Origin: Leptospirales bacterium
GTDB taxonomy: Bacteria; Spirochaetota; Leptospiria; Turneriellales; JAOUFE01
NCBI GenBank assembly: GCA_040326155.1
Contig: JBEQLE010000097.1
Coordinates: 1 to 12,827, forward strand
Direction: 5' to 3'
DNA: 12,827 bases
Shown here: piece after piece, positions 3,143 through 11,781 of the stretch
Position numbering within the stretch: position 1 is the first letter of the stretch
Layout: every line of letters starts with the position of its first letter
Notes under the pieces: generated by a model
Told to the model about the DNA's origin: nothing
What the model saw: only the letters and a program-made list of their open reading frames with translations
The model's database searches: none
Made by a program: the position numbers and the translations under genes

Positions 3143-3162
3143 TGGTGTGTAATTTCAGACCA
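3143..3162 (-). repeat. Dispersed intergenic 20-bp imperfect palindrome, copy R1
   Basis: Minus strand TGGTCTGAAATTACACACCA(G), between convergent genes, 10 nt past the GDPD stop. Confidence 0.9.
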
Positions 3163-3172
3163 ATTGGCGAAT

Positions 3173-4054
3173 TTAATATCCTGGAAATAGAATATCGGTA
3201 TAAATACCACCGTAGCGATATTTAAGGATATTTTGCCTGACTTCTACTTCATTTATTGTATGAACAAAATAAGGGATATTTCGATTTTGTAACATTTGAA
3301 TCAGCTCTGGTTCATTTTCGTATAATTCGAGTGGCATGGCAACCCCGTAAATGTCGCGGGTCTGCTCAATTTGTAGAATTAATTCTTCAACCGTATTCGG
3401 GTTGTTATATAATGAAAAAATATATTTTTGAAACCCCAGCTCTTTTATAAAGTCAAAATCTTCCGGGGTAAAAACTTCAGGGATAATTCGTTGAAACAGT
3501 TTGGTCTGGTTTAACCGGTTGATCTCTTTAGCCAGGTAATTTAACCCTTCACGGTTACTGGATTTTATATCGGTAATAATATAAGCGTCGGGGTGAAAAA
3601 TTAACCAGTGGATAATATCGTGAAAAGAGAGCGGCGTTAGTTTCTCCACCATTTTCAGCTTTGAAAACTCTTCTCTTTTTGGAATTTTTATATCAGCGCC
3701 GGGAAAAAGAGTTGTGAAAATATTGTGCCAGTCATGGACCGCTACAAGGTGTCCATCTGAACTCCAGTTACCATCGATTTCAAAGCATCGAAAATCGAAT
3801 CTGTAATTTTTATTGAGAGCTTCCAGAGAGTTAGAGTAAACAATCCCATTGACCTCGCCCCCTGCATGGGCAATATGCCTGCATGGAAAGGAGGGTTGTT
3901 CTATTTCATATGTATACGACTCTTCTTCTTGTGGGGACAGTTGAGCTTGATCAGGTGTATATAAAATTACGTATAAAAGAAGAATACCGAAAACAGCAAA
4001 GGGCAGGGCGTTCCATATATGAGTTTGTATTTTGTTGGTTTGATTCCTTTTCAT
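3173..4054 (-). CDS. Glycerophosphodiester phosphodiesterase (GDPD)-like protein with N-terminal membrane anchor
   Basis: 293 aa. IAHAGG...YSNSLEAL, FEID...SDGHLVAVHD, IITDIK, FVHTIN and GIYTD motifs; hydrophobic segment at about aa 17-32. Confidence 0.85.
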   Translation of the reverse strand: MKRNQTNKIQTHIWNALPFAVFGILLLYVILYTPDQAQLSPQEEESYTYEIEQPSFPCRHIAHAGGEVNGIVYSNSLEALNKNYRFDFRCFEIDGNWSSDGHLVAVHDWHNIFTTLFPGADIKIPKREEFSKLKMVEKLTPLSFHDIIHWLIFHPDAYIITDIKSSNREGLNYLAKEINRLNQTKLFQRIIPEVFTPEDFDFIKELGFQKYIFSLYNNPNTVEELILQIEQTRDIYGVAMPLELYENEPELIQMLQNRNIPYFVHTINEVEVRQNILKYRYGGIYTDILFPGY

Positions 4055-4147
4055 AAGCGGATATATTCACCTGAATAAGGGACTTTGTCACGCAGTTGCT
4101 ACGCTTATGCTGCATTTACTTCATTTATTCGCAGCAGAGTTTTCAAT

Positions 4148-4672
4148 TTATTTAGCACACTCTTTCTTGAATCGTTTTATGTCGAATTTCGATTTATTTA
4201 AAATGGAATCTCGTTCTTTTTTTTTGAATACCCTGGTTGTGGGGGAGATTTTTATATATGCACTTTCTCCGGCATCATAACCGTATTCAGACTCTCCGGA
4301 TATATTAGGGCAAATAAATACTGTTTCTCCGGGCTGGACATTAAATGAGGTTTCAACCTGGGTCGATAAGTAATAAACCTGGCCTATTACAAATACCGCT
4401 TTTACCTCTATTTTATGTTCACCTGATGTTGTATAAAACAAATAAGGTTTTGTTGAACTATTTAACTTTCTTTTGACCTGTCCATCGAGACTTTTAAGAA
4501 GTAAACGCGGGTCAAGAGCGACCAGCGCCAGTTGGTCCTTGGGGATTTTTCGATTGGCATTCATAATGGGAATCGCACCACAGGAGTATGTTAATGTAAT
4601 TGCAAATAATACTAAAAGTATTGGCCTGGAAAAAAGTTTATTAAGTCGTTGATTATTTTTCGATGATATCAT
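4148..4672 (-). CDS. Putative lipoprotein of unknown function
   Basis: ORF track start is 4708 (GTG); ATG at 4672 (MISSKNN) is more likely. Basic N-region, hydrophobic stretch and LTYSC lipobox-like site, then a beta-rich domain (SGEHKIEV, FNVQPGETVFI). Confidence 0.65.
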   Translation of the reverse strand: MISSKNNQRLNKLFSRPILLVLFAITLTYSCGAIPIMNANRKIPKDQLALVALDPRLLLKSLDGQVKRKLNSSTKPYLFYTTSGEHKIEVKAVFVIGQVYYLSTQVETSFNVQPGETVFICPNISGESEYGYDAGESAYIKISPTTRVFKKKERDSILNKSKFDIKRFKKECAK

Positions 4673-4722
4673 TGTCAATAGTGAAGATTGTAGATACGGC
4701 TGCAACACTTTTTGAACTTATC

Positions 4723-4756
4723 TGTTAGCAAACTTGTTAGCAAACCTTGCTAACAA
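4723..4756. promoter_or_regulatory. Perfect inverted repeat plus tandem half-site, candidate operator or hairpin
   Basis: TTGTTAGCAA-acc-TTGCTAACAA (4734-4756, 10-bp arms). TGTTAGCAAAC is directly repeated at 4723-4733 and 4735-4745. Lies between the MarR stop and the lipoprotein start. Confidence 0.5.
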
Positions 4757-4765
4757 TGTTACTTG

Positions 4766-5209
4766 TTATTTTTCTTTTTCTTTGTAATCAATTACATTTG
4801 CGGCTATTTTTTTCAATAATTTGATGGTTGTTTTTTTCTCTTTTTCGGTAAAGCCCGCCATAACTAATGCAGACAAGTCAGCGGAGGTCTTTTCTAAGAT
4901 GTTTTCTATACTTTTGAGTTTTTTGGTTTTCGATATAATATGTATTCGGCGGTCCTCAGGGGAAATTTTCTTTTGAATATAACCTAAATCTACCAATTGT
5001 TTAATAATCTTAGATGTTGTTCCTTTGTCAACAAATAGTAATTGGGAAATTTCTTCCTGGTTCAAACTGTCTCTGTGCATCAACGTCATTAACAGGGGAA
5101 GATGTCCCGGGTTTATGTCATATTTTATACGTTTTTTTCCAACGTACACCAAAGCATATCGGTGAAGAATGGATATCCACTTGCCGATAGATTCATTTTG
5201 AAGGTTCAT
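4766..5209 (-). CDS. MarR-family transcriptional regulator
   Basis: About 147 aa from ATG 5209 (GTG 5218 alternative). LNQEEISQLLFVDKGTTSKIIKQLVDLGYI HTH and SPEDRR wing motif. Confidence 0.9.
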   Translation of the reverse strand: MNLQNESIGKWISILHRYALVYVGKKRIKYDINPGHLPLLMTLMHRDSLNQEEISQLLFVDKGTTSKIIKQLVDLGYIQKKISPEDRRIHIISKTKKLKSIENILEKTSADLSALVMAGFTEKEKKTTIKLLKKIAANVIDYKEKEK

Positions 5210-5394
5210 AATCCACACGTACCCTGTTTTACTTACTTTTTTCGTGGTATCAGGGTCCGCTGATTTTCCTCTTTCCCCTGCCTGCGACCAGCTGGTTTTC
5301 CGTCACCCCATACGATATCAGATTCTGTAAAAATTAGTTGACGTCTGAACGAAGTGTCGTATAAACGTTGTACTCCACTTTCGGAGGTACTCTT

Positions 5395-5430
5395 ATGATC
5401 TGTCATAACAATACCGCAAGGTTCCTTTAG
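5395..5430 (+). CDS. Putative leader peptide MICHNNTARFL upstream of rtcB
   Basis: GGAGGT (5383-5388), 6-nt spacer, ATG at 5395, 11 codons, TAG at 5428-5430. Confidence 0.45.
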   Translation: MICHNNTARFL

Positions 5431-5453
5431 AGCGAACACTCTTCGCTCCTTTT
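5430..5453 (+). terminator. Terminator/attenuator-like hairpin in the rtcB leader
   Basis: GAGCGAA-cactc-TTCGCTC, a perfect 7-bp stem, followed by CTTTT. It starts on the G of the uORF stop codon. Confidence 0.45.
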
Positions 5454-5556
5454 AACTATAACGCCACTGGCGTGTTTTTACAACAACCCTGAATTGAAAA
5501 TTATTCGGGAGATCCTGTTAATTTAAGAGATTAACTTGAATATTAATTAAAAATTT

Positions 5557-6666
5557 ATGGAAAAAAGTTACAGAATAATTGCGTCCTCAGAAAATCGGGT
5601 GGAAGAGGAAGCGAAATGTCAAATGGAAAAAGCTGCAAATTTACCCGGTGTAGTTTGCGCAGTTGGTATGCCCGACATTCATCCCGGTAAAGGGGGGCCC
5701 GTAGGCGTTTCGGTTATGACTCGTGATGTTATCTACCCGTATTTAATTGGCGGCGATATCGGTTGCGGCATGAGGCTGAGCCAGGTGGCCCGGCATCAAA
5801 AGAAATTGAAAATAGAGCAGTGGAAAAAGCGCCTGTTAAAACCTGTTGAATATGACATCGATTTGGAGAAAGAGTTCATTCGAAATGGTTTAGAAAGAAC
5901 AAAGTATGACGAACAGCTCGGAACAATAGGGTCGGGAAACCACTTTGCTGAGTTTTTAACGGTTGAGAAAGTTTTTGACTCGAAAAAATTTAACGAATCA
6001 GGATTAAACAAAGATTCCGTTTACTTGTTAATACACTCCGGCTCGCGACGTTTTGGTAATGACATCTTGCGAGAGTACGTTGACGCAAGAAAAGACGGGG
6101 GTTGTCGGCCAGGTGAAGATGCATATGAAAAATACATAGACTCTCACCACAAGGCTTTGCTGTGGGCTAAGTTGAACCGGGAATTGATTGCAAAACGGTT
6201 GCTTCAAAAGTTAGGCACAACCGATGCTACAATTTTAGACATCGCGCATAACTATATCGAGAGTATGGAGCATGAAGATGGCGGAACAACTTTTGTACAC
6301 AGAAAAGGAGCGATTTCAGCAGAATCTGATCTTGTGGTAATACCCGGTTCGCGTGGCACCCCGAGTTACCTTGTAGAACCTTTGAAAAATGAGGCCGCTC
6401 ATGGTTATTCTCTGGCTCATGGAGCGGGTAGAAAATGGAACAGAATAAAATCGCGTCAGATGAGTCGAATAAAATATAAAGACAAGGATATTCGAAATAT
6501 GAAAGGGCATTCAGCCTTGCTCACGAATGACCGAAATGTAATGCTGGAAGAGGCACCCGAGGCCTATAAAAACATTAAAACGATTATTGCAGACCTTGAA
6601 CAAGAGCGACTAATCCGGGTGGTATCTTGTTTTACTCCCCGCATAACGTATAAGGCGGAACTTTAA
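5557..6666 (+). CDS. rtcB: RNA ligase RtcB, PrfH-associated short form (RtcB2)
   Basis: 369 aa. [52 protein letters not shown] and EEAPEAYK catalytic motifs; directly followed by prfH. Confidence 0.95.
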
Positions 6667-6667
6667 A

Positions 6668-7429
6668 ATGGTAAACAAGATGAAAAAGAGAAACAAATTG
6701 TGGGTTCAAGTCACTTCAGGGCGGGGGCCGCAAGAGTGCAGGTGGGTTTGCCGGAAAGTGGCGCAGCAAATGATGAAAGAAGCTGTTCGTTTGAATATAG
6801 AGTGTAACATCGCCGAGCAAGAACTGCCTACACCGTCCATGCAAAAAACGTCTCGAAGCGCTTCAGGGCCGTTGGCTGCTTCTGTGTTGATGGTGTTTGA
6901 CGATACAGAAACTTGCCTGAGCTTTTTAGAAAAATGGCGAGGAACAATTTTGTGGACCGGGCAGAGCCCTTTTCGAAAAAAATGCAAACGGAAAAACTGG
7001 TTTGCAGGAGTTGATTATTTTCGCGACAAGAGCGCCGGTATGAGCGACACCGGGCCAAAACCTAATTTTCAGCAAACCGGCGAACGCACAACCAAAGTAA
7101 CCCGTGGTGAAGTGCAATTTGAGGTCATGCGCGCCGGTGGCCCCGGAGGGCAACATGTGAATAAAACGGAATCAGCAGTAAGGGCGACTCATATAGACAC
7201 AGGTATTGTAGTGATCGCCAGGGATGAAAGATCGCAAAACGCAAACAAACAGAAAGCTTTAGAACGGCTTGCTGTTTTGCTTCAAGAAAAAAGTGACAAG
7301 GAGTTAGTAGATTTTAAAGCAAAAAAATGGGGTTCGCATAATGAACTTGAACGGGGAAATCCGGTGCGGGTATTTACGGGAAAAGACTTTAAAGAAGTTC
7401 AACAGGGCGGAACAAATGAAAGTGGGTGA
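6668..7429 (+). CDS. prfH: Peptide chain release factor H
   Basis: 253 aa. [20 protein letters not shown]...[31 protein letters not shown] and LERGNPVR motifs; starts 1 nt after the rtcB stop. Confidence 0.93.
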
Positions 7430-7444
7430 AGTTTCCTCATTCGT

Positions 7445-8278
7445 TTATCGAGTTTCAGTCGGGATTCTTTTTAATATAATAACGGGAATTTCCGGTGGGG
7501 AGTTAAACCGTACGGGTAGTATGGAGGTGCCGATTCCTCTGCCGATAAAAATATCTTCCCCTTGAGCAGATTTACGAAAACCGCGATCATAAGACTTATT
7601 GTTTAGCGGCAAAATCGGAGCGTAATTAAAAAACGGGATTGCCACCTGGCCTCCATGTGTATGTCCGCAAAGGAACAGATCGACGTGGTTTACTCGCGGC
7701 AGATCAATTGTATCGGGGTTATGTGCAAGGACAATGCGAAAAAGGTTTTCAGGGGTTCCCCTCAGGGCTTTGTCAATGCCGGGACTGTCTTCATAAAAAT
7801 CCCCCGCCCCTGCGACGACTATGGATTGTTTGTTATGGGTAATTACCCTGTGTTGGTGGCGAACGGATAGCCCGCTTTCTTTGAGCAGCTTAAGTGAGCT
7901 CTCGTGGTCGGCCCAATGATCGTGGTTTCCGTTTATCATAAGGACACCATCTTTCGCCTTGAGGTTTTGCATGTGGCGCCAGGCAACGATCAACTCTTTG
8001 ACGTTCTTATGGCCTTTTACATAGTCGCCCAGACCGACAATAAGGTCTACGTCCAGAGAATTTGTTTTATTGATAATGCGTTTCAAAAAATATTCGGTGA
8101 GATAAGATGTATAGTGGACATCGGAAATAATTGCAATTTTATACCCATCAAACTCGGGCGGTATTTTTTCAGACTCGATGGTATAATAATTTACATTAAG
8201 TAGAAACGGCTCTACAAAAAGAGTGTAAGTGGCCCCCGCAACGCCAAGTGATAAAATAATGGTACGCATAGAAAACAT
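7445..8278 (-). CDS. Calcineurin-like metallophosphoesterase (YkuE/YaeI-like)
   Basis: ISDVH, GDYV, GNHD, LAHNPD, GHTHGGQ and GIGTS..PVRFNSPPEI motifs. The track's GTG at 8344 lies inside repeat R2, so ATG 8278 (or 8269) ahead of the hydrophobic anchor is the likelier start. Confidence 0.88.
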   Translation of the reverse strand: MFSMRTIILSLGVAGATYTLFVEPFLLNVNYYTIESEKIPPEFDGYKIAIISDVHYTSYLTEYFLKRIINKTNSLDVDLIVGLGDYVKGHKNVKELIVAWRHMQNLKAKDGVLMINGNHDHWADHESSLKLLKESGLSVRHQHRVITHNKQSIVVAGAGDFYEDSPGIDKALRGTPENLFRIVLAHNPDTIDLPRVNHVDLFLCGHTHGGQVAIPFFNYAPILPLNNKSYDRGFRKSAQGEDIFIGRGIGTSILPVRFNSPPEIPVIILKRIPTETR

Positions 8279-8326
8279 CGGGGTAATGTAAATGCCGGTT
8301 CTCAATCGTACAGTAATATTCTGTTT

Positions 8327-8346
8327 TGGTCTGAAATTCCCCACCA
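8327..8346 (+). repeat. Dispersed intergenic 20-bp imperfect palindrome, copy R2
   Basis: TGGTCTGAAATTCCCCACCA(G), between divergent genes; identical to R5. Confidence 0.9.
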
Positions 8347-8537
8347 GCGCAGATCATACGTATGCTGACTAAAGTGGTAAATATTTTATAGTTCGCAAAA
8401 ATCGTTTCTGTTCTGTAATTTTTGAATGGATTTGTTTCGATTGTTAATTTCCGTGGTCAAAAAGAATTGTTTTTATAATATGGAAGTTATAGGCATAGGT
8501 AGCTGTTTAACATTGCAATGAAATAACGGAAGAAATT

Positions 8538-9200
8538 ATGAAGATACGAGAATTTACAGGTTTCAGTTTACCGGATAAAAAAAGGGGTATTGCATTTTTC
8601 AATTGGAATCTGGCATGGGTTACTTGCTTTATTATTATGTATGGCTCAATGAATTGGATTACATCTAAAGAGCAGTCGCCTCTACAGTTGTTTTTTGAAT
8701 GGGAGCTTTCTATACCTTTTCTACCGGGGTTTATCTGGATATACTTATCGATTGTATTTATCTTTTTTGTACCCTTATTTTTTTCAAACGTGAACGGTAT
8801 TCGGTATTTAGGACCCAAAATGCTTTGGGCAACTTTTACGGCAGGCATTTTGTTTTGGTTGTTTCCCGCTGAAGCGGGTTATGTCAGGTCTGATACTATA
8901 GCGGACCAATACCTTCTATTTAGGATTTTGTATTTTTTCGACCATTATCCGCATAATCTGTTTCCTTCGTTGCATATTACATATAGTGCTATTCTTGTAT
9001 TTTCCATGTTGACAAGTGTCAAAACTGTCATAAAATGGTTATTATGGATTTGGTTTCTTGTAATTTGTCTGTCTGTTTTTGTTGTTCACCAACACCATCT
9101 TGTGGACGTTGCAGGGGGAGTTTTGTTAGCGTTGGCTATTCATATGCTGAGTCGACATGGTAGCAAACCCATTTTAAAAAATGAAGATAACACGGGGTAA
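8538..9200 (+). CDS. PAP2-superfamily integral membrane phosphatase/phosphotransferase
   Basis: 220 aa, about 6 TM. NLFPSLHI and HQHHLVDV motifs match the PAP2 C2/C3 catalytic motifs. Confidence 0.85.
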   Translation: MKIREFTGFSLPDKKRGIAFFNWNLAWVTCFIIMYGSMNWITSKEQSPLQLFFEWELSIPFLPGFIWIYLSIVFIFFVPLFFSNVNGIRYLGPKMLWATFTAGILFWLFPAEAGYVRSDTIADQYLLFRILYFFDHYPHNLFPSLHITYSAILVFSMLTSVKTVIKWLLWIWFLVICLSVFVVHQHHLVDVAGGVLLALAIHMLSRHGSKPILKNEDNTG

Positions 9201-9277
9201 GTTTATAATTAAAAGAATTCTTCCAATTCAATCGTTTTCATATTTTCCTGAGTTTCTTATGGTTATTTCTTGTTTTA

Positions 9278-9297
9278 TGGTTTGAAATTCCCCATCG
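9278..9297 (+). repeat. Dispersed intergenic 20-bp imperfect palindrome, copy R3
   Basis: TGGTTTGAAATTCCCCATCG(G), between convergent genes. Confidence 0.85.
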
Positions 9298-9398
9298 GAA
9301 TTTTTTGGCTGTGATCTCGCCTTCCTTAATTCTGTAAATCCGAAAAGCCTGTCTATTCATTTTCTCTTCGCGCACTTTGAACCTTTTTGGCTAAAAAT

Positions 9399-9418
9399 TG
9401 GTTTGAAATTCCCCACCA
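9399..9418 (+). repeat. Dispersed intergenic 20-bp imperfect palindrome, copy R4
   Basis: TGGTTTGAAATTCCCCACCA(G), 121 bp after R3. Confidence 0.9.
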
Positions 9419-9473
9419 GGAGAATTTTGTGTATCATACGTCGGGGGTGATGGAGAACCAACGGGTCGGAATC

Positions 9474-9496
9474 AGGGGGTAGGCTTACCCCCTTTT
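9474..9496. terminator. GC-rich hairpin directly after the YjdF stop, probable terminator
   Basis: AGGGGGTA-ggct-TACCCCCT, a perfect 8-bp stem (9474-9493). The T-run follows on the + strand; the tail is weak on the - strand. Confidence 0.55.
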
Positions 9497-10109
9497 AAGT
9501 TGTTGTATTCAATCGTGCAATTTGTCTGTTGTGGAATTTTGATAACAGTAGAAGTGAGCAAATGGCCCCGATGGCGGCTAAGAGCATATCGGACTGGGTG
9601 TCCCAGACATAACCCTGGGTTCCGAGGAAGGCTTCGGCTCCTTCTTCGCTTGTCAGGGCTACCCACCATTCGACGAGTTCGTAAAAAGCGCTGAAGGCGA
9701 GACAGATGGAGACGACGATGAAAAAGAGCCACCCCGACTTTACAACCACAGATTTACGGATTAGAATTTCACGGGTTAGAATGGCTGGTATAAAGCCCTG
9801 GGCAAAGTGACCAATCTTGTCGTAGTTATTTCGTTCGAATCCAAACCACTCTTTCATATGCTCAAACAAGGGGACTTCGGAGTATGTATAGTGACCCCCG
9901 ACCATTAAGATTGCGGCGTGTACCAAGATGAGTATATAAAGCAGTGGAGTCAGTGGAAAGGTTTTGCGAGTAAGTCCTATTAACACTAGGCCGATGATTG
10001 CGGGAAACACTTCGAGAAACCAGTTCCAGTAATCTTTCGGGGCAATTGCCGACCATATGAGAACGATGAAGAATATGGCTATCCATGTTATCTGGGTGAA
10101 GTATTTCAT
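9495..10109 (-). CDS. yjdF: YjdF/DUF2238-family inner membrane protein
   Basis: 204 aa. GGHYTYSEVP, RNNYDKIGHFAQG, AFSAFYELVEW and FLGTQGYVWDTQSDM motifs. Confidence 0.88.
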   Translation of the reverse strand: MKYFTQITWIAIFFIVLIWSAIAPKDYWNWFLEVFPAIIGLVLIGLTRKTFPLTPLLYILILVHAAILMVGGHYTYSEVPLFEHMKEWFGFERNNYDKIGHFAQGFIPAILTREILIRKSVVVKSGWLFFIVVSICLAFSAFYELVEWWVALTSEEGAEAFLGTQGYVWDTQSDMLLAAIGAICSLLLLSKFHNRQIARLNTTT

Positions 10110-10154
10110 TATGAATGGGTAAATGGCTAGTGTACTGTTGTAAAGGAGAATTTA

Positions 10155-10174
10155 TGGTCTGAAATTCCCCACCA
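10155..10174 (+). repeat. Dispersed intergenic 20-bp imperfect palindrome, copy R5
   Basis: TGGTCTGAAATTCCCCACCA(G), flanked by AGAATTTA at 10147-10154 and 10177-10184. Confidence 0.9.
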
Positions 10175-10190
10175 GTAGAATTTAAAGAGC

Positions 10191-10218
10191 AGGCTGGAAA
10201 ACAGGAAGTTCCCAGCCT
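10191..10218 (-). terminator. Hairpin downstream of the orphan gene, possible terminator
   Basis: AGGCTGG...CCAGCCT 7-bp arms with inner AAC/GTT pairing, 27 nt past the stop at 10246. The - strand tail is GCTCTTT. Confidence 0.35.
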
Positions 10219-10245
10219 ATAGCATTGGAAATTACGAGAAGGTCT

Positions 10246-10872
10246 CTATTTCCAGATATCCCCGTTAAAATGTTCCTCAAATTCCGCTTTGTAGGCTTTA
10301 TAATAAAAAGCCATCCAGTTTGCTTTATAGATATCATCGACATTTTTTTGTGCTGCGTCGCTGGTAAATATGGATTGTGACAAGGATGGTCCGACGATGG
10401 GAATCCAGTATAAAAATGTACGTAGACCAAATCCGTAACTTATGCTATGGATTATTTTATTCATTACTTGATCGATAAACCAGATGTCTTCTGTTGCATG
10501 TTTTTTTTGTGATTTGTAATCTTTACCATTGAGCGTTAAAGTAAAGTCACGTTTACGTCCCATTACAAAAAAGTCTGAAATTTCTCGCTTCATGTTACCC
10601 GTGACATCAGTTTTCAAATCACCGGTATTAAAGTACCTGCTGTCCGTGTTCATTGAACCCAGAAAATCTTTAAACTCGGGTGTCATTTTTGCCCATTTTC
10701 GACGCCTGTTCGCAAGCCGAAAGACGGGAACCAAAGTAACAAAGAATACTAATATTAAAAGAGGAATTGCTATTATTAGTATTGTACCACCGGAACCACC
10801 AAAAAGATTATCCCATTGTGTCCCTCTTAATATCGGAATGTATTTTTCTAAAAAATCAGTTATATATTTCAT
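10246..10872 (-). CDS. Hypothetical membrane protein, no recognised family
   Basis: 208 aa with AAGGA upstream of the ATG. TM helix TILIIAIPLLILVFFVTLVPVF followed by basic RRRK, and a second hydrophobic patch FLYWIPIVG. Confidence 0.7.
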   Translation of the reverse strand: MKYITDFLEKYIPILRGTQWDNLFGGSGGTILIIAIPLLILVFFVTLVPVFRLANRRRKWAKMTPEFKDFLGSMNTDSRYFNTGDLKTDVTGNMKREISDFFVMGRKRDFTLTLNGKDYKSQKKHATEDIWFIDQVMNKIIHSISYGFGLRTFLYWIPIVGPSLSQSIFTSDAAQKNVDDIYKANWMAFYYKAYKAEFEEHFNGDIWK

Positions 10873-11070
10873 GCTTTAATCCTTTTACATCAGTCTATTT
10901 TATTGGTTATTTTCTTTAAAACTATATTAGAAATTTGTATTTTCGTAAACTATAGCTGACCATAGAAATAATAATGGTTTTAGTCGCGTCAAGTCCTTTT
11001 CTCTTGCACGGCAATTTTCAGTTTCATTATCATGAGCAGCAGTTAGATGAAATAAAAAAGACTCTTGCCC

Positions 11071-11090
11071 TGATGGGGAATTTCAGACCA
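11071..11090 (-). repeat. Dispersed intergenic 20-bp imperfect palindrome, copy R6
   Basis: Minus strand TGGTCTGAAATTCCCCATCA(G), 28 nt past the DUF411 stop. Confidence 0.9.
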
Positions 11091-11118
11091 TGATTATTCT
11101 ATACCCTGAAGTTCTTGC

Positions 11119-11661
11119 TCAATATTTTTCGTAATGCTTGAATATACTGACTTTTCCCGCAGGTGCGTTCGGATCAATAGGGGCTTCAAATGAGAATACA
11201 CTAAAAACATCTTTGTGGCCGGGGTTTTCCATGCCTGGGGTCCCAACGGGCATTTTCGGGACGGTCAAACCTATGATGTCGGGACGTTCTGTAAGTAGTT
11301 GCACAATGTCTTCCGCCGGAACATGTCCTTCTATTATATAACCGTCAATAACTGCAGTGTGACAGGAGGCGAGGTGGGCAGGAACGCCGAGTTTTTGTTT
11401 CACCGGATCCATGTTGTCCGTTGGAATATCAATTACTTTGAAATTATGTTTTTCAAGGTGGGATATCCATTTTTTACAGCATCCACAGGTGGGGCTATGG
11501 TAGACCTCGATTTCCAGTTTTGAAACTTTTGAGGCGTCATAGTTTTTTAAGTCCCACACGTTGACTTCTGGTGTAGATGCTGCGGGAGTTTTTTCACAAC
11601 CAGCAAAGAGGGAAAATAGTAATAATAGTAAAAATAGTAAAAAATATTTGTTTGATTTCAT
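11119..11661 (-). CDS. DUF411-family (CopG-like) metal-binding lipoprotein
   Basis: 180 aa. LFAGC lipobox, SPTCGCCKKW, SCHTA, IEGHVPA and GLTVPKMPVGTPGME motifs; AGGA RBS. Confidence 0.9.
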   Translation of the reverse strand: MKSNKYFLLFLLLLLFSLFAGCEKTPAASTPEVNVWDLKNYDASKVSKLEIEVYHSPTCGCCKKWISHLEKHNFKVIDIPTDNMDPVKQKLGVPAHLASCHTAVIDGYIIEGHVPAEDIVQLLTERPDIIGLTVPKMPVGTPGMENPGHKDVFSVFSFEAPIDPNAPAGKVSIFKHYEKY

Positions 11662-11761
11662 ATAGTTTCCTGATTTAATTCAAAATATTGGATTTACAAA
11701 AAATCAGTTCAGAATGCTTGCGGTGTCAAGGGTTATTTCGGATTGAGAGTTATTGAATCTA

Positions 11762-11781
11762 AGGTGTGTAATTTCAGACCA
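11762..11781 (-). repeat. Dispersed intergenic 20-bp imperfect palindrome, copy R7
   Basis: Minus strand TGGTCTGAAATTACACACCT, 28 nt past the polymerase stop. Shares 20 contiguous nt (GGTGTGTAATTTCAGACCAA) with R1. Confidence 0.88.

Follow-up and report, generated by a model that had tools for sequence, protein, structure and literature searches.

An apparently copied 18-22-bp site dispersed through a Leptospirales genome and found beside accessory genes: a tentative recombination substrate

What are the seven near-identical, near-palindromic sites that divide a contig of an uncultured Leptospirales bacterium mostly into units of single genes, and do they play a part in moving these genes? 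The stretch in question, hereafter the window, is the whole contig JBEQLE010000097.1 (12,827 nt) of assembly GCA_040326155.1 (4.26 Mb in 171 contigs, 39.6 % guanine-cytosine (GC) content, 94.66 % complete). A preliminary description of the window had proposed a site for a trans-acting recombinase or nuclease that captures or shuffles genes, or else a family resembling REP (repetitive extragenic palindromic) sequences. A recombination substrate is the most likely function of the motif, resembling either the intergenic mosaic elements of Neisseria (NIMEs) with their dRS3 repeats or the dif modules of Acinetobacter plasmids. Our best explanation as a whole, held tentatively and at slightly below an even chance, is that a dispersed, copied site borders blocks of accessory genes and acts there as a portable recombination substrate.

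The degenerate 19-mer of the preliminary description recovered all seven copies (7/7) with 0 mismatches each, compared to 0 matches in 200 dinucleotide-preserving shuffles of the window, and a repeat finder detected the same sites independently (families D1 and D3). R1 (3144-3162, minus strand; variant TTGGTCTGAAATTACACACC) lies between the convergent 3' ends of a sulfatase-family gene and a GDPD gene, and R2 (8327-8345, plus; consensus T form) in the divergent gap between a metallophosphoesterase gene and a PAP2 gene. R3 (9278-9296, plus) follows the PAP2 stop by 78 nt, and R4 (9399-9417, plus) is located 121 nt past R3 and 77 nt from the 3' end of a YjdF-like gene; both carry a GGTTTG variant. 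R5 (10155-10173, plus) lies between the start of the YjdF-like gene and the 3' end of an orphan gene, R6 (11072-11090, minus; CCCCATC variant) between the 3' end of a DUF411 gene and the orphan gene start, and R7 (11763-11781, minus), with the private variant of R1, has the PolB stop 29 nt before it. The orientation from R1 to R7 is thus - + + + + - -. Spacings of 951, 121, 756 and 691 bp were confirmed by the repeat finder, and a copy occupies every gene gap from the metallophosphoesterase to PolB, both as first described. Open reading frames (ORFs) together with family matches also confirmed the position of three copies (R1, R3, R4) between convergent 3' ends. The statement that all copies lie outside recognizable genes holds for the window, apart from R2, which covers codons 1-6 of the metallophosphoesterase ORF if this is extended to its maximum (with the GTG at 8344 as start). 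As the family matches begin at residue 36-69 of this ORF, the true start is probably further in.

Beyond the window, the motif belongs to a family that is spread over the genome (G000 in our labels, with C-numbers for its contigs). Allowing up to two mismatches, the degenerate pattern matched 53 sites compared to 3 for a reversed control; about a quarter of the 53 belong to another sequence, GGTGTGAGATTCCACACC, which is part of a multi-copy gene. With up to two changes allowed, the core GGTC[G/T]GAAATTCCCCACC has 47 copies, of which 36 are intergenic, one lies partly over an ORF and 10 are inside crude ORFs, several of them doubtful short ones; ORFs make up ~89 % of the genome. A genome-wide position-weight scan returned 130 sites of at least 12 bits, compared to 10 with the reversed matrix; of the sites reaching 30 bits, 28 lie between genes and 3 within ORFs. 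The conserved information is limited to ~22 nt plus a weak A-rich tail, which gives an extended form (T)GGTC[G/T]GAAATTCCCCACC(AG) of 18-22 bp whose core has the inverted termini GGT…ACC. One discrete subfamily is distinguished by a TTTTT centre.

The site is a near-palindrome with a fixed flaw. In most copies 7 of 9 position pairs are complementary, and in the 42 strong copies pairs 0, 2, 5, 7 and 8 are complementary in 40-42 cases, whereas pairs 3/14 and 6/11 are non-complementary in 42/42 and 41/42. An identical asymmetry is found in the copies of a related organism (see below). The fixed asymmetry and the discrete subfamilies imply that the copies descend from one master sequence and, judged by these sequence features, the family appears to spread by copying and not by independent evolution of binding sites.

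Copies that are neighbours resemble each other most. In the window, R1 and R7 are identical at 20/20 positions and share a double variant that is unique in the genome, the GGTTTG variant of R3 and R4 is likewise unique, and R2 and R5 are identical over the 21-nt TGGTCTGAAATTCCCCACCAG; the three pairs are nested and all direct. Across the genome, the four highest flank similarities among 990 pairs (40, 35, 34 and 33 of 60 nt; mean 17.2, standard deviation 3.9) all belong to adjacent direct pairs, located on C81, C108 and C118, while the best distant pair reached 29. The direct repeats of those adjacent pairs extend over 111 nt at 95.5 % and 74 nt at 93 %. Of the neighbouring pairs no more than 3.5 kb apart (n = 22), most are direct (15, with 5 head-to-head and 2 tail-to-tail), and a few pairs are only 32-214 bp apart, among them the 121-bp unit R3-R4. 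The window itself is exceptionally dense, with 7 copies in 8.7 kb compared to a maximum of 4 in 2000 random intergenic placements of 38 copies. Neither a tandem repeat spanning R3-R4 nor a tandem duplication as the origin of this pair was detected. The private variants carried by neighbouring direct copies are in favour of the cassette-like units that had been suggested for the window.

Which genes do the copies enclose? Reading along the window, a sulfatase-family gene (+) is followed by R1, by the GDPD gene, a lipoprotein-like ORF and marR (all -), by rtcB and a gene with an RF-1 domain (+), and by the metallophosphoesterase gene (-) and R2; then come PAP2 (+), R3, R4, the DUF2238/YjdF-like gene (-), R5, the orphan gene (-), R6, DUF411 (-), R7 and PolB (-). 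The R2-R3 unit contains the PAP2-family gene (PF14378; 8538..9200, +) with a GC content of ~35 %, the R4-R5 unit the gene for a DUF2238 (YjdF-like) membrane protein (9495..10109, -; ~46 % GC), and the inverted pair R5/R6 brackets the gene of an orphan 208-aa membrane protein (10246..10872, -; 34-38 % GC) that matched no Pfam or NCBIfam family. DUF411 (11119..11661, -) fills the R6-R7 unit. The single genes are accessory, in line with the idea of captured cargo: the orphan and the YjdF-like gene were present in 0/40 relatives and DUF411 in 1/40, compared to 9/12 for PolB. The GC content, too, differs between the units. Elsewhere in the genome, genes for HicA, HicB, HigB, VapBC, PIN and Fic proteins are neighbours of copies. 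The 5.2-kb block between R1 and R2 (3173..8344) comprises GDPD, the lipoprotein-like 186-aa ORF, marR, rtcB, the RF-1-domain (prfH-like) gene and the metallophosphoesterase gene; rtcB is directly followed by the prfH-like gene (window 5557-7429), a known RNA-repair / ribosome-rescue pair. As the preliminary description had noted, family searches revealed no recombinase among the window genes, including this block.

To learn about the history of the site, we compared the genome with relatives and with metagenomes. In 40 relatives, the search for the exact motif gave only one hit, with a single mismatch; a scan of species representatives returned it once, on one contig of a Saccharibacteria genome, and the metagenome scan yielded seven loci. 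Four of these come from one metagenome and represent the related organism mentioned above (68-86 % nucleotide identity, proteins 83-91 % identical), while the other three have no protein in common with the present genome. Matches outside the lineage (the Saccharibacteria contig, the three metagenome loci and one viral contig) were set aside, being at about chance level by estimate and not by computation. Among the genomes scanned, the motif is thus lineage-specific and confined to the present genome and one related organism. Between these two, copies turn over. The related organism has a single copy between CysRS-SpoU and a gene termed geneX here; at the corresponding place, the present genome has two direct copies and, enclosed by them, a 2.6-kb block with HigB, an IrrE-type antitoxin-like gene and a PNPOx-like gene (the HigBA block), and the two bordering copies have ~70 nt in common. 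On C15, the orthologous copy is unchanged in the midst of scrambled flanks. At orthologous and paired sites the 18-mer is 18/18 identical while the flanks diverge by ~20 % or more, which points to constraint on the 18-mer. Synteny downstream of PolB was uninformative in family relatives (at most 56 % identity).

A looser palindrome pattern was matched in other genomes too. It has 27 sites in G024, a genome from another family of the same order, mostly as the perfect palindrome GGTGGGGAATTCCCCACC, 5 sites in G001, and single sites in four other genomes. Out of 24 G024 sites that were examined, 14 are intergenic and 8 lie in ORFs of 75-111 aa; they share mosaic arrays with further palindromes of the GGAATTCC core and with a dif-like unit. 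The window motif appears to be the lineage-specific form of an order-wide GGAATTCC-core palindrome family. The preliminary fallback of an unrecognized REP-like family comes closer to the whole picture. At the G024 loci L053-L072, the intergenic mosaics are built of GGTGGGGAATTCCCCACC, GGTATGGAATTCCATACC, GTTCAGGAATTCCTGAAC and GATGGGGAATTCCCCATC and adjoin a recurring TTAGTTACTAA-N8-9-TTATGTCNCAT unit with a dif-like layout and variable spacers.

In our proposal, the seven copies belong to a family of double-stranded DNA sites of 18-22 bp that is dispersed over the genome and would have arisen as a lineage-specific, fixed-asymmetric form of the GGAATTCC-core palindromes that build intergenic mosaic repeats in this order. 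The family would grow by copying, and its copies may act as a portable recombination substrate bordering small blocks of accessory genes: on entering at a resident copy, a block would come to lie between two direct copies, and recombination between these would remove it again. Either a trans-encoded recombinase would cut in the asymmetric centre, or the copies would merely supply short homology. The motif often stands at the edges of imported gene blocks and therefore probably helps such blocks to enter or leave the chromosome; we infer both the recombination at the site and the existence of a protein that reads it.

Several observations weigh against this explanation. Of about five structural differences to the related organism, four lack copies at their borders. 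The motif is missing from the junctions of a ~600-nt indel on C15, of a gene replacement on C33 and of the synteny break from geneX to C104, and an insert of ~395 nt at locus L042 of the related organism contains motif-like copies instead of being bordered by them. Only one difference, the HigBA block, is bordered by copies. Even this case is not base-exact: the gap in the present genome holds further repeat families (216 and about 110 extra nt), so that the crossover cannot be assigned to the motif itself. The majority of copies are solitary, and the family is spread over many loci instead of forming one cassette array; from the cassette picture drawn for the window, the accessory cargo, the pairs with private variants and the one bordered block stand, whereas the genome-wide dispersal and the missing fixed orientation speak against it. 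Relative to genes, the copies are randomly oriented (9 in sense and 7 in antisense direction in tandem gaps, counted by hand). The shared private variants of a pair are not predicted by a simple attB x attP exchange, unless both parents carried the variant. The search for an enzyme adds to these points. No RAYT gene (PF01797) was matched in the 94.66 %-complete assembly, although the same search was positive in 6 of 14 known genomes, and no serine recombinase was found in the genome. Four tyrosine recombinases are encoded (XerD, a XerC-like protein and two further Xer-like proteins), with no motif within 2.5 kb of their genes, and IS110-family genes are present with no motif within 1.5 kb. The expected link of a copy to an integrase, serine recombinase or RAYT/HUH gene was hence not borne out among the families searched in this genome.

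The L042 insert (at about 1306-1856) is absent from the present genome at C141:12325-12385. Five or six sites with the GGAATTCC core lie in it, along with a single copy of an 80-100-nt repeat family, and it is located ~250 nt upstream of the orthologue of one of the extra Xer-like recombinase genes. Since alignments with a junction at a motif-like site and with a 6-nt inverted-end insert are equally possible, a crossover inside the motif is not claimed for L042 and C141.

The strongest rival is an inert or selfish interspersed repeat, REP-like or of the type of MITEs (miniature inverted-repeat transposable elements), that accumulates in permissive intergenic DNA, where accessory genes would gather as well; its link to these genes would be incidental, and the HigBA indel would have arisen by ordinary recombination. 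We regard this as a possible but less probable account. In its favour, placement follows gap length: 38/42 strong copies are intergenic (17 in tandem, 14 in divergent and 7 in convergent gaps), and the shares of 0.45/0.37/0.18 are close to the 0.53/0.31/0.16 expected by intergenic length. Gaps with a copy are long (median 352 vs 149 nt) and often contain other repeat families. A MITE has a body of 50-500 bp between terminal inverted repeats and a target-site duplication. Inverted doublets exist here at 50 bp on C120 and 69 bp on C119, although most copies are single; copies turn over between the two related organisms and arrive at L042 inside a composite insert; related palindromes form dense mosaics in G024; and four structural differences lack copies at their borders. 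Against a REP-like nature, however, no RAYT gene was found, and the T form, which is that of every window copy, has almost no hairpin: its folding energy of -0.8 kcal/mol is at the level of shuffled sequences (-0.6 to -0.9), and even the G form folds only modestly (-2.6 to -3.6 kcal/mol), for which reasons a hairpin REP was rejected. An inert repeat would also leave three features unexplained, namely the 18/18 conservation amid diverging flanks, the mostly direct arrays with gene-sized spacing, unlike alternating clusters of the bacterial interspersed mosaic element (BIME) type, and the private variants that pair exactly around gene blocks.

A bolder form of the recombination account is a chromosome-wide cassette exchange with an enzyme encoded elsewhere, in which the copies would serve for the insertion, excision and inversion of single genes and toxin-antitoxin pairs. 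Here the site would be a core of 18 bp whose arms are short and inverted and whose centre is asymmetric, and the centre subfamilies (AAATT vs TTTTT) together with the private variants would decide which copies pair. Such a system would be the spirochaete counterpart of dif modules or NIME arrays with an unrelated site, which might be read by a member of an expanded, order-specific family of tandem ribbon-helix-helix (RHH) proteins or by one of the two extra Xer-like recombinases. Given at this length, the account seems unlikely to us.

Less likely still is a binding site of a sequence-specific protein, acting in transcription or chromosome structure (e.g. a tandem RHH protein), that was spread passively on mobile DNA. 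The near-palindrome of this genome and the perfect palindrome of G024 would suit a dimer or pseudo-dimer, two divergent promoter regions contain inverted doublets (those of ZIP / PCuAC-SCO1 and of a TetR-efflux operon), orthologous sites keep the core, and the genome holds 28 tandem-RHH loci. However, 7 of the 38 intergenic strong copies lie between convergent 3' ends, just as gap length predicts, the distance to the next same-strand gene start ranges from 33 to 695 nt, and the neighbouring genes, from tRNA synthetases and flagellar genes to toxin-antitoxin pairs, have no function in common. Fixed asymmetry, subfamilies and private variants point to copying and not to site-by-site selection, and only 3/28 RHH loci have a copy within 500 nt.

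The same placement data disfavour a transcription-factor operator or regulon, which had been doubted from the window and is now unlikely genome-wide (convergent share 0.18 vs 0.16 expected, unrelated neighbours), as well as a promoter or sigma-factor element: start distances vary widely, placement is neutral with respect to gap class, and a consensus scan tied nothing to the copies. By eye, the motif was compared with the consensus sequences of sigma-54, extracytoplasmic function (ECF) factors, sigma-28 and the Bacteroidota -33/-7 type, the last of which was dropped because the flagellar genes of the assembly show that the genome is not of Bacteroidota origin. An RNA element was discarded, as Rfam detected only two tRNAs in 138.5 kb (the window and 19 further loci) and orientation to transcription is random. 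Also, the sites are neither attC nor dif/pdif sites nor a CRISPR array, in agreement with the preliminary description: conservation is limited to ~22 nt, there is no GTTRRRY in the consensus, orientation is mixed and the best integron integrase score (TIGR02249) was 181.8 bits against a cut-off of 265; the arms …ATAA N6 TTATG… of the 28-bp dif site are missing from the motif, and a dif-like candidate is located elsewhere (C122:24682); and spacings of 121-5183 bp with whole genes in the intervals do not fit the identical repeats at regular distances and the short unique spacers of CRISPR.

By analogy, NIME/dRS3 arrays and dif modules would be the nearest known systems to the proposed recombination substrate. 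With dRS3 the motif shares a unit of ~20 bp, inverted termini, restriction to one lineage, intergenic position and some clustering in arrays; the dense mosaics of related palindromes in G024 and the one 121-bp unit R3-R4, resembling dRS3-RS-dRS3, also recall NIMEs. In contrast to dRS3, which keeps only its 6-bp termini, the whole 18-mer including the centre is conserved here in a fixed asymmetric form. The motif has about 47-100 copies in the present genome, fewer than dRS3, its spacers are mostly whole genes (0.7-2.7 kb) and not RS elements of 50-150 bp, neither a phage nor an IS110-type recombinase is linked to it, and the host is a spirochaete. It has been proposed that dRS3, as the target of a recombinase or as a homology substrate, favours exchange of the genes next to it; it is also an integration site of filamentous phages (PMC1797815). 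The part of this 2007 paper on which we draw states that NIME-type arrays were not seen outside Neisseria (PMC1797815).

The Acinetobacter dif modules are likewise single-gene or toxin-antitoxin modules with short border sites and no recombinase in the module. In the part of the work used here, recombining partner sites are described as sharing their spacer and higBA modules as common (PMC13141974), which is paralleled by the pairs with shared private variants and by the HigBA block between two copies. The present site differs in that it has no 11-6-11 structure with XerC/XerD arms, unlike the dif-like candidate of this genome, does not alternate in orientation (four consecutive + copies; 15/22 pairs direct), and is chromosomal, dispersed and mostly solitary. 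REP sequences and REPINs resemble it as short, species-specific intergenic near-palindromes in tens of copies with some inverted doublets; here, however, no Y1/RAYT was found, the T form has no stable hairpin, and arrays are mostly direct with gene-sized spacing. attC sites are defined by R''/L''...L'/R' boxes with the sequence GTTRRRY. Integrons and clusters of attC sites lacking integron-integrases (CALIN) have in common with the present loci that a recurring site splits unrelated, promoter-poor single accessory genes and that toxin-antitoxin cargo is frequent; in contrast, the present site measures 18-22 bp instead of 50-150 bp, lacks GTTRRRY or RYYYAAC ends, and occurs in mixed orientation at dispersed loci of a genome in which no integron integrase was found. 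Among the papers listed as holding the motif string none was relevant, and a search on Leptospira repeats listed nothing on this family.

Integrons, dif modules and possibly NIMEs are the few systems for which it is understood how small accessory genes travel, inside a chromosome or from one to another, with no integrase or transposase linked to them. If blocks do cross over at the site described here, such traffic would extend to spirochaetes, with a new site whose fixed asymmetry and discrete centre variants make partner choice directly testable. Even an inert family would mark the variable loci of an uncultured lineage, and a spirochaete order would carry mosaic intergenic palindromes, so far reported mainly from Neisseria.

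Some further elements were observed around the family. The tandem-RHH family has 28 loci in the present genome and matches in 22/40 relatives (up to 26 per genome); all five G001 sites of the looser palindrome lie in the 3' ends of its genes, and GGTGTGAGATTCCACACC is found inside the 3' coding end at 12/28 of the loci. The unit of ~790 bp encodes one protein of 187 aa (e.g. C82:39700-40480, C100:6175-6735 and C15:6299-6859) that matched no Pfam family and is predicted, from a model with a mean pLDDT of 69, to consist of two RHH units in tandem. Its best fold matches are small, unnamed chains of F-plasmid relaxosome entries (E 0.017); TraY is a tandem RHH protein. Since only 3/28 loci are near a motif copy, the connection is a lead and not a finding.

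A dif-like 28-mer is located at C122:24682-24709, with further sites at C83:67088-67115 and C66:16648-16675. The arm TTATGTCNCAT occurs 32 times in the present genome, 27 times in intergenic position, and the 11-6-11 palindrome with this arm on C66 is ~75 nt from a motif copy. The secondary palindrome GGGGATTTCCCC was rejected as a partner site, as only 4/33 copies are near the motif. The intergenic family of ~80-100 nt with the layout CGGTAGCATTCCGCAC…TTTACGCTACG…CGTCGTCTGCC (C81:8204-8280, C81:11690-11764, C83:68099-68178 and about 17 others) had no Rfam match and seems to show compensatory changes within a hairpin; at three sites it lies directly against the motif. A MITE-like family with ~80-nt arms and ~100 BLAST hits is found at C97:25640-25860 and about 45 other loci, and another intergenic family has about 75-80 copies (C146:14000-14300, C108:17000-17200) and forms an inverted repeat around the motif copy at C146:14120. 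Repeat families B, C and D were considered as parts of one larger element and dismissed, none having a fixed arrangement to the motif: most of the about 20 copies of B are without it, and 6/11 hits of C and 7/100 of D are near it.

Motif-like 18-mers also occur within the coding sequence of two paralogous genes with an extracellular contractile injection system (eCIS) core domain (C86:12571 and C145:10373); these look like coding look-alikes and not like family members. Finally, the copy at C112:16414-16431 (L014 3001-3018) lies downstream of two tRNA genes, at a distance of ~70 nt, and beyond it come an ankyrin-repeat gene and a nucleotidyltransferase gene, a layout that is typical of island insertion points.

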